In this document: piece by piece, positions 3,905-4,266 of the stretch
How the letters are laid out: each line of letters begins with the position of its first letter
How positions within the stretch are numbered: position 1 is the first letter of the stretch
IMG/VR virus record: IMGVR_UViG_2636416140_000004
DNA: 7,042 nucleotides
Direction: 5' to 3' (one strand)
DNA from: a virus
Lineage: Duplodnaviria; Heunggongvirae; Uroviricota; Caudoviricetes
Made by a program: the position numbers and the translations under genes
The notes under the pieces: generated by a model
Told to the model about the DNA's origin: nothing
The model's database searches: none
Seen by the model: only the letters and a program-made list of their open reading frames with translations

Positions 3905-4053
3905 AATAGCGTTTTCTTATCGGTATCGGTAAGATTGCTGCGGGTGCTTGAGGCTGTCTGCCTCGGGCATGCCACTGTAAGGCAGACAGAGAAAAGCCCC
4001 AGTTAACATTACGCGTCCTGCAAGACGCTTAACATTAATCTGAGGCCCAATCT
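3905..4053 (+). promoter_or_regulatory. hok promoter region and hok mRNA 5' leader (tac/ucb-like elements)
   Basis: -10-like TAAGAT at 3930..3935 with a weak -35; leader from about 3941 (GCGGGTGCTTGAGG) resembles the plasmid R1 hok mRNA 5' end as recalled; perfect 10-bp hairpin 3954..3963 / 3980..3989 with 16-nt loop. Confidence 0.5.
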
Positions 4054-4062
4054 ATGTCTCAC
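3990..4062 (-). ncRNA. sok: Candidate Sok-like antisense RNA (type I antitoxin) overlapping the mok start
   Basis: On the minus strand, -35 TTGCCT (complement of 4092..4097) and -10 TAACCT (complement of 4069..4074) with a 17-bp spacer, at the position where sok promoters sit relative to mok/hok; transcript would be antisense to the mok SD and start (4042..4056). 3' end not resolved. Confidence 0.4.
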
Positions 4063-4266
4063 AAATGTAGGTTAGCCTCTTACGTGCCGAAAGGCAAGGA
4101 GAAGCAGGCTATGAAGCAGCAAAAGGCGATGTTAATCGCCCTGATCGTCATCTGTTTAACCGTCATAGTGACGGCACTGGTAACGAGGAAAGACCTCTGC
4201 GAGGTACGAATCCGAACCGGCCAGACGGAGGTCGCTGTCTTCACAGCTTACGAACCTGAGGAGTAA
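4054..4266 (+). CDS. mok: Mok-like reading frame (N-terminally extended Hok, 70 aa) that couples hok translation
   Basis: ATG at 4054 with GAGG 8 nt upstream; in frame with hok. The N-terminal extension MSHKCRLASYVPKGKEKQA resembles what I recall of MokC. Confidence 0.55.
   Translation: MSHKCRLASYVPKGKEKQAMKQQKAMLIALIVICLTVIVTALVTRKDLCEVRIRTGQTEVAVFTAYEPEE
4111..4266 (+). CDS. hok: Hok/Gef-family type I toxin, 51 aa (HokD/RelF-like sequence)
   Basis: MKQQKAMLIALIVICLTVIVTALVTRKDLCEVRIRTGQTEVAVFTAYEPEE: single TM helix followed by the conserved RKDLCE periplasmic motif; SD AAGGAG upstream of the ATG at 4111. Confidence 0.85.
   Translation: MKQQKAMLIALIVICLTVIVTALVTRKDLCEVRIRTGQTEVAVFTAYEPEE

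Follow-up and report, generated by a model that had tools for sequence, protein, structure and literature searches.

A highly probable prophage hok/sok locus of an already-described type, and the variable 5' tail of its predicted Sok RNA

Upstream of a small toxin gene in a tailed-phage sequence (IMG/VR record IMGVR_UViG_2636416140_000004), two minus-strand hexamers and a nine-nucleotide repeat that encloses an inverted repeat raise the question of whether a Sok antisense RNA is encoded opposite the toxin mRNA and, if so, where it would start and stop. The window is the whole stretch of DNA that was analysed, 7,042 nucleotides in length, and all positions are counted from its first letter. It is almost certain that the region is an ordinary prophage hok/sok toxin-antitoxin locus of a kind that has already been described, in which the flagged hexamers are the promoter of the Sok antitoxin and the repeat and palindrome together make up its stem-loop and terminator.

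The hok and mok genes, the hok mRNA and their surroundings

The toxin reading frame matched the Pfam family PF01848 (HOK_GEF) with 82.9 bits against a cut-off of 22, and the Rfam family RF01794 was matched on the plus strand at 3942-4116 with 118.1 bits (gathering score 59), the model (positions 1-157) being covered over its full length. The elements on this strand are as follows.

3930..3935, plus strand: candidate -10 hexamer of the hok promoter, TAAGAT, 6 nt before the mRNA start; it aligns with TATAAT of the hokC-type loci
3939..3960, plus strand: 5' end element (tac region), pairing with 4309-4331
3942..4358, plus strand: full-length hok mRNA, its 5' end placed by homology to R1 and its 3' end past the terminator and T run
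4042..4045, plus strand: mok Shine-Dalgarno sequence GAGG, 8 nt upstream of the ATG at 4054
4054..4056, plus strand: mok ATG
4054..4266, plus strand: mok reading frame, 70 codons, in frame with hok (from the list of open reading frames; the mokW coding sequence of phage 933W starts at the homologous base)
4075..4083, plus strand: candidate downstream complementary box, the nearly invariant GCCTCTTAC in the spacer of the Sok promoter, conserved in alignment A1
4111..4266, plus strand: hok toxin gene, 51 aa (Pfam HOK_GEF; the RefSeq name for the homologue is HokD)
4309..4331, plus strand: 3' fold-back element (fbi), the partner of the 5' end of the hok mRNA

The mok frame of the Escherichia hokC locus, mokC, is likewise in frame with its hok gene. 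The 5' end of the mRNA was placed at 3942, where the RF01794 match begins and where the 5' primer for R1 hok is homologous, and TAAGAT is, from its alignment, the probable -10 of the hok promoter. The fold of 3942-4358 had a z-score of -7.0. Its two ends carry inverted repeats, one perfect (3939-3947 with 4323-4331, designated I6, 9/9) and one at 85% (3948-3960 with 4309-4321, I3), and in the minimum free energy (MFE) fold 3942-3953 is paired with 4316-4328, shortly before an intrinsic terminator found at 4334-4353 by the terminator scan. As modelled, this end pairing is the tac/fbi pairing typical of hok mRNAs.

In the full-length fold the mok Shine-Dalgarno segment, 4041-4046, pairs with GCCCCA at 3996-4001. 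This hairpin, a weaker form of the Sok hairpin but on the hok strand, would by analogy correspond to the upstream complementary box (ucb), which sequesters the mok Shine-Dalgarno sequence in the R1 model (PMC9841398); GCCTCTTAC, whose complementarity to the mok Shine-Dalgarno sequence is carried over from the same model, probably represents the downstream complementary box (dcb). The MFE folds of 3'-shortened hok mRNAs did not cleanly reproduce the R1 refolding into tac-ucb and SD-dcb pairs, for which GCCCC at 3996-4000 and GCCUC at 4075-4079 are the candidate elements.

The neighbourhood is the nin region of a lambdoid prophage, with genes for DUF551, DUF1367, DUF1364 and DUF1133 proteins. 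Two insertion sequences are present in the window, IS600 at about 1324-2587 and IS1 at about 4760-5530, the latter separating the hok locus from the DUF1367 gene; a gene for a LysR-family regulator (888-1370) is cut short where IS600, an IS3-family element, begins, and an insertion sequence load of this order is typical of Shigella. The hok mRNA start is preceded, at a distance of some 170 nt, by a strong intrinsic terminator on the minus strand (3741-3773), with a 13-bp stem and then a T run; its inverted repeat might serve the DUF551 gene on the plus strand as a terminator as well. The hok region (3437-4273) is identical to that of Shigella flexneri SFBU1023 and Escherichia coli ECMA0423, and homologues of a 471-bp segment were found in 4722 of 5426 complete E. 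coli genomes; the locus is one among thousands. The window in its entirety is contained in no complete E. coli genome. E. coli-type hokD/sok sequences at 96-100% identity also occur in records assigned to Acinetobacter idrijaensis (L016, 275 bp), Xanthomonas pisi (L021, 431 bp) and Actinobacillus phage vB_Apl-pPE4 (H66). These non-enterobacterial records, two of them tiny contigs and the third a phage, likely reflect contamination or a wrong host assignment.

A locus in such a setting might be a decayed relic, with neither sok nor hok expressed or functional. The prophage around it is interrupted by both IS600 and IS1, and Pedersen and Gerdes, as summarised in a recent preprint, regarded chromosomal hok/sok loci as often inactive, several hok loci being reported so (bioRxiv 10.1101/2025.08.07.668861); activity of the copy studied here is therefore not guaranteed. 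Decay of the antitoxin side has a precedent in hokD (relF) of K-12, whose Hok protein is identical to the one encoded here (L005, 100%): in the K-12-type copies of alignment A1 (L005, L026 and L042) only the hok Shine-Dalgarno sequence and coding sequence are kept, and mok, sok and the 5' leader are replaced by unrelated sequence, thus leaving these toxins without a cis-encoded antitoxin. Here, however, all the elements are intact, namely hok, mok, the tac/fbi pairing, the terminator, the Sok promoter and the Sok hairpin, and apart from the Sok 5' tail and one loop base they match those of the functional sokW locus. The divergence of the tail leaves pairing with its own mRNA undisturbed, since complementarity is automatic for a cis-antisense RNA, and the nearest insertion sequence, IS1, starts about 400 nt past the hok terminator. 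We consider it unlikely that the locus is a relic.

The repeat, the palindrome and the Sok hairpin

Read on the minus strand, the repeat and the palindrome become parts of a single structure.

3988..3995, minus strand: U-rich tract UUUUCUCU, the termination site, directly past the hairpin; together with C3996 it reads CUUUUCUCU
3996..4046, minus strand: Sok stem-loop and terminator hairpin, 51 nt, with the anti-Shine-Dalgarno sequence CCUC (4045..4042) in its 5' arm
4003..4011, no strand assigned: copy 1 of the direct repeat, TTAACATTA, in the 3' arm of the middle stem of Sok
4012..4028, no strand assigned: hairpin tip, with arms GCGTC(C)/(A)GACGC, within an 18-nt clade-specific extension (about 4012-4029)
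4029..4037, no strand assigned: copy 2 of the direct repeat, TTAACATTA, in the 5' arm of the middle stem of Sok

The preliminary description had reported the nine-nucleotide repeat and the inverted repeat between its copies, and both are as it gave them, the copies being exact and the arms GCGTC and GACGC lying at 4013-4017 and 4024-4028. By our own arithmetic about 0.02 exact 9-nt repeats within 26 nt would be expected by chance in a region of 110 nt. The repeat is explained by RNA structure: in the Sok RNA TTAACATTA reads UAAUGUUAA, and seven Watson-Crick and two G-U pairs (columns 74-101, UG, and 75-100, GU) join one copy to the other, the "direct repeat" being a wobble palindrome. It is the U-G / G-U at the centre of the stem that allows direct repeats to pair together, and because these wobble positions become A-C mismatches in the hok mRNA, the hairpin is far more stable in Sok. 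The tip, which reads GCGUC(U)/(G)GACGC in the Sok RNA, belongs to an extension that is present in the hokD/hokW-type and Kluyvera loci and absent from the hokC-type, Photorhabdus, Erwinia and R1 loci. Compensatory changes in the tip replace G-C by A-U in one locus (L022) and A-U by G-C in another (L024).

The difference between the strands is large. Segment 3994-4048 folds with -28.9 kcal/mol on the minus strand against -17.8 on the plus strand, and an 89-nt RNA from 4063 to 3975 with -38.6 kcal/mol (z-score -5.7) on the minus strand against -25.6 on the plus strand; a 75-nt Sok of 4062..3988 is predicted at -30.7 kcal/mol, its first 9 nt unpaired and followed by the long hairpin and then UUUUCUCU. 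Across 33 diverse loci, 92.1% of the cells at paired positions hold standard pairs when read as the minus strand and 70.5% when read as the plus strand, 142 of them G-U in the Sok hairpin, one invariant U-G included, and the minus-strand hairpin is the more stable in all 33 (mean -23.4 against -13.9 kcal/mol). Compensatory changes were found at six pairs in the same 33 loci; the covariation score of the hairpin was reached by none of 500 shuffles and by no slid register, and RNAalifold independently recovers the outer stem. Taken from the alignment and the modelled folds, these observations argue that the structure is selected specifically on the Sok strand.

The converse reading is that the repeat and palindrome at 4003-4037 act mainly on the plus strand, as a hairpin of the hok mRNA that closes over the mok Shine-Dalgarno sequence (a ucb-SD stem) or as a DNA operator, and are no part of Sok. 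From what is established for the family, hok/sok is not known to have a protein regulator. The plus strand does also fold at the repeat, through the pairing of the mok Shine-Dalgarno segment described above, and the R1 model has an upstream complementary box in just this role (PMC9841398). Such a role is compatible with a Sok hairpin, as the two RNAs are exact complements; a plus-strand role alone, however, would turn the 142 G-U cells into A-C, with the loss of standard pairing and of folding energy already given, and we regard it as highly unlikely.

With the hairpin assigned to Sok, the lack of a clean Sok terminator noted in the preliminary description no longer stands: the hairpin of 3996..4046 followed by CUUUUCUCU (3996-3988) is a terminator by its fold, and the 3' end of sokW, at 3992, falls within that tract. 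The built-in terminator scan of the window did not call it, presumably owing to the long, bulged stem, and the U tract UUUUCUCU is short and interrupted.

The Sok promoter and the ends of Sok

The minus-strand elements upstream of the hairpin are the following.

4097..4092, minus strand: -35 hexamer of the Sok promoter, TTGCCT, aligned with TTGCGC of R1 and TTGACC of the hokC-type loci; it overlaps the 3' arm of a plus-strand hairpin
4074..4069, minus strand: -10 hexamer of the Sok promoter, TAACCT, 17 bp (4075-4091) from the -35 (from conservation and the sokW mutant)
3992..4062, minus strand: predicted Sok antisense RNA, 71 nt, with a 5' G at 4062 and a 3' end between 3992 and about 3986 (sokW of 933W maps without indels; the ends of the R1 template are homologous)
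4049..4062, minus strand: Sok 5' tail, about 14 nt, single-stranded in the fold, GUGAGACAUAGAUU, complementary to the mok start codon and hypervariable

The candidate promoter that had been proposed, TTGCCT and TAACCT with a gap of 17 bp, is present on the minus strand (AGGCAA at 4092-4097 and AGGTTA at 4069-4074 on the plus strand). As a match to the sigma-70 consensus it is poor, with 4/6 at the -35 and 3/6 at the -10 (7/12 in total); the built-in sigma-70 scan, which requires at least 9/12, did not list it, and the 7-kb window holds 88 sites that are equal or better, no excess over the 80.3 +/- 8.7 found in dinucleotide shuffles. The hexamers alone are no better than chance, and support for the promoter therefore rests on homology and conservation.

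Both agree with the proposal. The sequence from the -35 through the -10, together with three bases beyond, is base-for-base identical to that of 933W/Sp5 sokW, and the promoter of R1 Sok, TTGCGC-17-TATCCT, falls in the same alignment columns. For sokW there is direct evidence: Takada et al. (2021; PMC8621323) used primer YO-421 to change the -10 from GGTTAG to GGCTCG on the hok strand (TAACC to GAGCC on the sok strand), and the resulting "pro-less" mutant lost its protection against HokW, part of which was restored by sokW in trans; the antisense RNA was seen on a northern blot with a probe equivalent to 4033-4062 of the window, and dependence on RNase III and Hfq was reported.

Conservation was assessed in 66 unique versions of the region from Escherichia, Shigella, Kluyvera, Photorhabdus, Erwinia, Citrobacter and an R1-type plasmid. 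All 66 have a -35 of the form TTG(C/A)C(N); their spacers measure 17 bp in 55 cases and 18 bp in the other 11. In alignment A2, which holds 33 sequences, the -10 always has A at position 2 and T at position 6. Twelve loci with TTGACC and a 17-bp spacer are the hokC type and its relatives, which have gained 1 nt at the -35 and lost 1 nt beside the -10, so that the spacer keeps its length. The promoter thus has a conserved position and spacing, opposite to hok and between the mok start and the hok Shine-Dalgarno sequence. Part of this conservation could stem from the hok mRNA, as the promoter overlaps GCCTCTTAC, the hok Shine-Dalgarno sequence and a plus-strand hairpin at 4085-4096. This hairpin, UGCC-GAAA-GGCA, lies just upstream of the hok Shine-Dalgarno sequence, has a GNRA loop and covaries across families (GC/UA and GC/AU, alignment columns 7-18); since it overlaps the Sok -35, the sequence of the latter is also constrained by mRNA structure.

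A second candidate promoter on the minus strand, TTAACA (4135..4130) and TAGCCT (4111..4106) with an 18-bp spacer, is nearer to consensus (8/12 against 7/12), and an antisense RNA started from it would be longer and would extend over the hok Shine-Dalgarno sequence and start codon as well. It was rejected as the Sok promoter and is the least probable of the alternatives, given that its -10 is not conserved (R1-type loci have GGCCAT there and hokC-type loci AGCAAT, neither with the A2/T6 pattern), that its -35 lies in the hok coding sequence, which varies between families, that mutation of TAACC alone abolishes antitoxin activity in sokW (PMC8621323), and that the 933W annotation starts sokW at the base mapping to 4062.

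From TTGCCT and TAACCT, transcription would proceed leftward across the mok Shine-Dalgarno sequence and ATG from a start near 4062, as had been proposed, and on this start the sokW annotation and the R1 primers agree. The 933W record (AF125520) carries a 71-nt "SokW antisense RNA" that maps to 4062..3992 of the window and ends at the last U of UUUU (3992). For R1 the ends were taken as those implied by the primer sequences used for the in-vitro template (PMC1635323): the 5' end lies at the homologous G, 7 nt past the -10, and the 3' end about 10 nt past GGGG, in GGGGCUAUCUUCUU. The 3' end at our locus was placed at 3992-3986 since sokW ends at the former position and R1 Sok about 10 nt past GGGG. 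The predicted span of 3992-4062 includes both the mok Shine-Dalgarno sequence and the mok start, and it is owing to the 18-nt extension of the hairpin tip that Sok has about 71 nt here and not 64. The sequence identity to sokW, the conservation, the covariation and the strand asymmetry are computed; by analogy with sokW and R1 we infer Sok transcription, the exact RNA ends and repression at the locus under study.

Known relatives and the variable Sok tail

The closest characterized relative is hokW-sokW of 933W/Sp5 (annotated by Plunkett et al., 1999, AF125520; studied by Takada et al., 2021, PMC8621323). The architecture is the same and 3936-4125 can be aligned without indels; the -35, spacer, -10 and U tract of sokW are those found here and the stem differs by one loop base, whilst the mokW and hokW starts are the bases homologous to 4054 and 4111, with mok in frame with hok and a Hok of 51 aa in both. 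The differences are in the tail and in the location. Seven substitutions are clustered in 4046-4064, that is, the Sok tail with two flanking bases on each side, including mok codons 1-4; and hokW lies near the right end of the 933W genome, whereas the present copy is in the nin region beside the DUF551 and DUF1367 genes, flanked by IS600 and IS1.

Plasmid R1 hok/sok (parB) is more remote, HokW and R1 Hok being only distantly similar at 44% identity (PMC8621323). In R1, too, the antisense promoter stands at the homologous columns, the RNA starts 7 nt past the -10, its 5' tail covers the mok AUG, a U-rich end comes after the CCUC...GGGG stem, and the hok mRNA has the tac/fbi pairing; R1 Sok, however, has 64 nt and a short hairpin, and the 18-nt tip extension is a feature of the Sok described here. 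The Escherichia hokC/sokC (gef) type has the same order of elements, the A2/T6 of the -10, a 17-bp spacer and mok in frame, but differs in its -35 (TTGACC) and -10 (CACTCT) with their compensating 1-nt indels, and in a short hairpin devoid of the extension. The locus adds nothing new to the hok/sok paradigm, the Sok gene having been annotated in 933W in 1999 and its promoter tested in 2021.

Its annotation is another matter. In RefSeq the closest copy in a complete genome (L001, E. coli AVS0790, 3001-3471) has the hokD coding sequence only, with neither mok nor a sok RNA. The Rfam model RF01794, although called "sok", is 157 nt in hok-mRNA sense, its consensus starting with the 5' end of the hok mRNA and reaching as far as the hok AUG, and its plus-strand match was for that reason rejected as an indication of the Sok strand; pipelines that use it can place sok on the wrong strand and at more than twice its length. 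The built-in consensus scans for promoters and terminators are uninformative at the Sok locus. Such a locus should be annotated with the hok and mok genes and, on the minus strand, a sok RNA about 71 nt long, three features in all.

How Sok would act can be outlined from R1 and sokW. Sok would be made constitutively from TTGCCT-17-TAACCT, RNA polymerase starting at G4062 on the minus strand and stopping after some 71-77 nt, past the long hairpin of 4046..3996 and CUUUUCUCU. The tail GUGAGACAUAGAUU (4062-4049), antisense to the mok start codon, would be the first part to meet the processed hok mRNA, at one of its loops; CUCACAA at 4058-4064, which begins with the YUNR-type CUCA, is predicted to form a hairpin loop of the mRNA facing the first five bases of Sok. 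The duplex would then spread over the mok ribosome-binding site (CCUC of Sok, 4045..4042) and block translation of mok, and with it that of hok, which is coupled to mok; RNase III would cleave the duplex of Sok and hok mRNA (PMC1635323, PMC9841398, PMC8621323). The suggestion that the repeat region is the place of the interaction between Sok and its target would thus hold for the final duplex but not for the first contact, which on the R1 model is expected at 4049-4062.

It is this tail that varies. Over the hokD/hokW-type loci the hairpin and the promoter have entropies of 0.05 and 0.18 bit per position, whereas 4047-4062 has 0.91, and the segment 4068-4046, which contains the Sok tail and mok codons 1-5, has 15 alleles among 26 unique loci. 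Three loci in one genome, that of S. flexneri SFBU1023, differ from one another at 6-8 of the first 16 nt of Sok and at 2-4 of the other 104 nt. The loci bearing on tail variation were L006, L008, L012, L003 and L011, together with the IMG/VR loci L056-L135. At the level of sequence, this pattern suggests a diversification of antitoxin specificity. The first 16 or so nucleotides of Sok, together with the mok start, would then form a hypervariable "address" cassette in an almost invariant locus, and diversifying selection towards antitoxins that are mutually orthogonal may lie behind it, a tentative proposal to which we give slightly less than even credence. If it is true, each lambdoid prophage of a poly-lysogen would keep a private module for addiction or lysis timing, to which the Sok RNAs of its neighbours give no cross-protection. 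The clustering of changes in the tail and the wobble palindrome may help in the design of antisense molecules that target Sok and in studies of cross-talk between the toxin-antitoxin systems of prophages.
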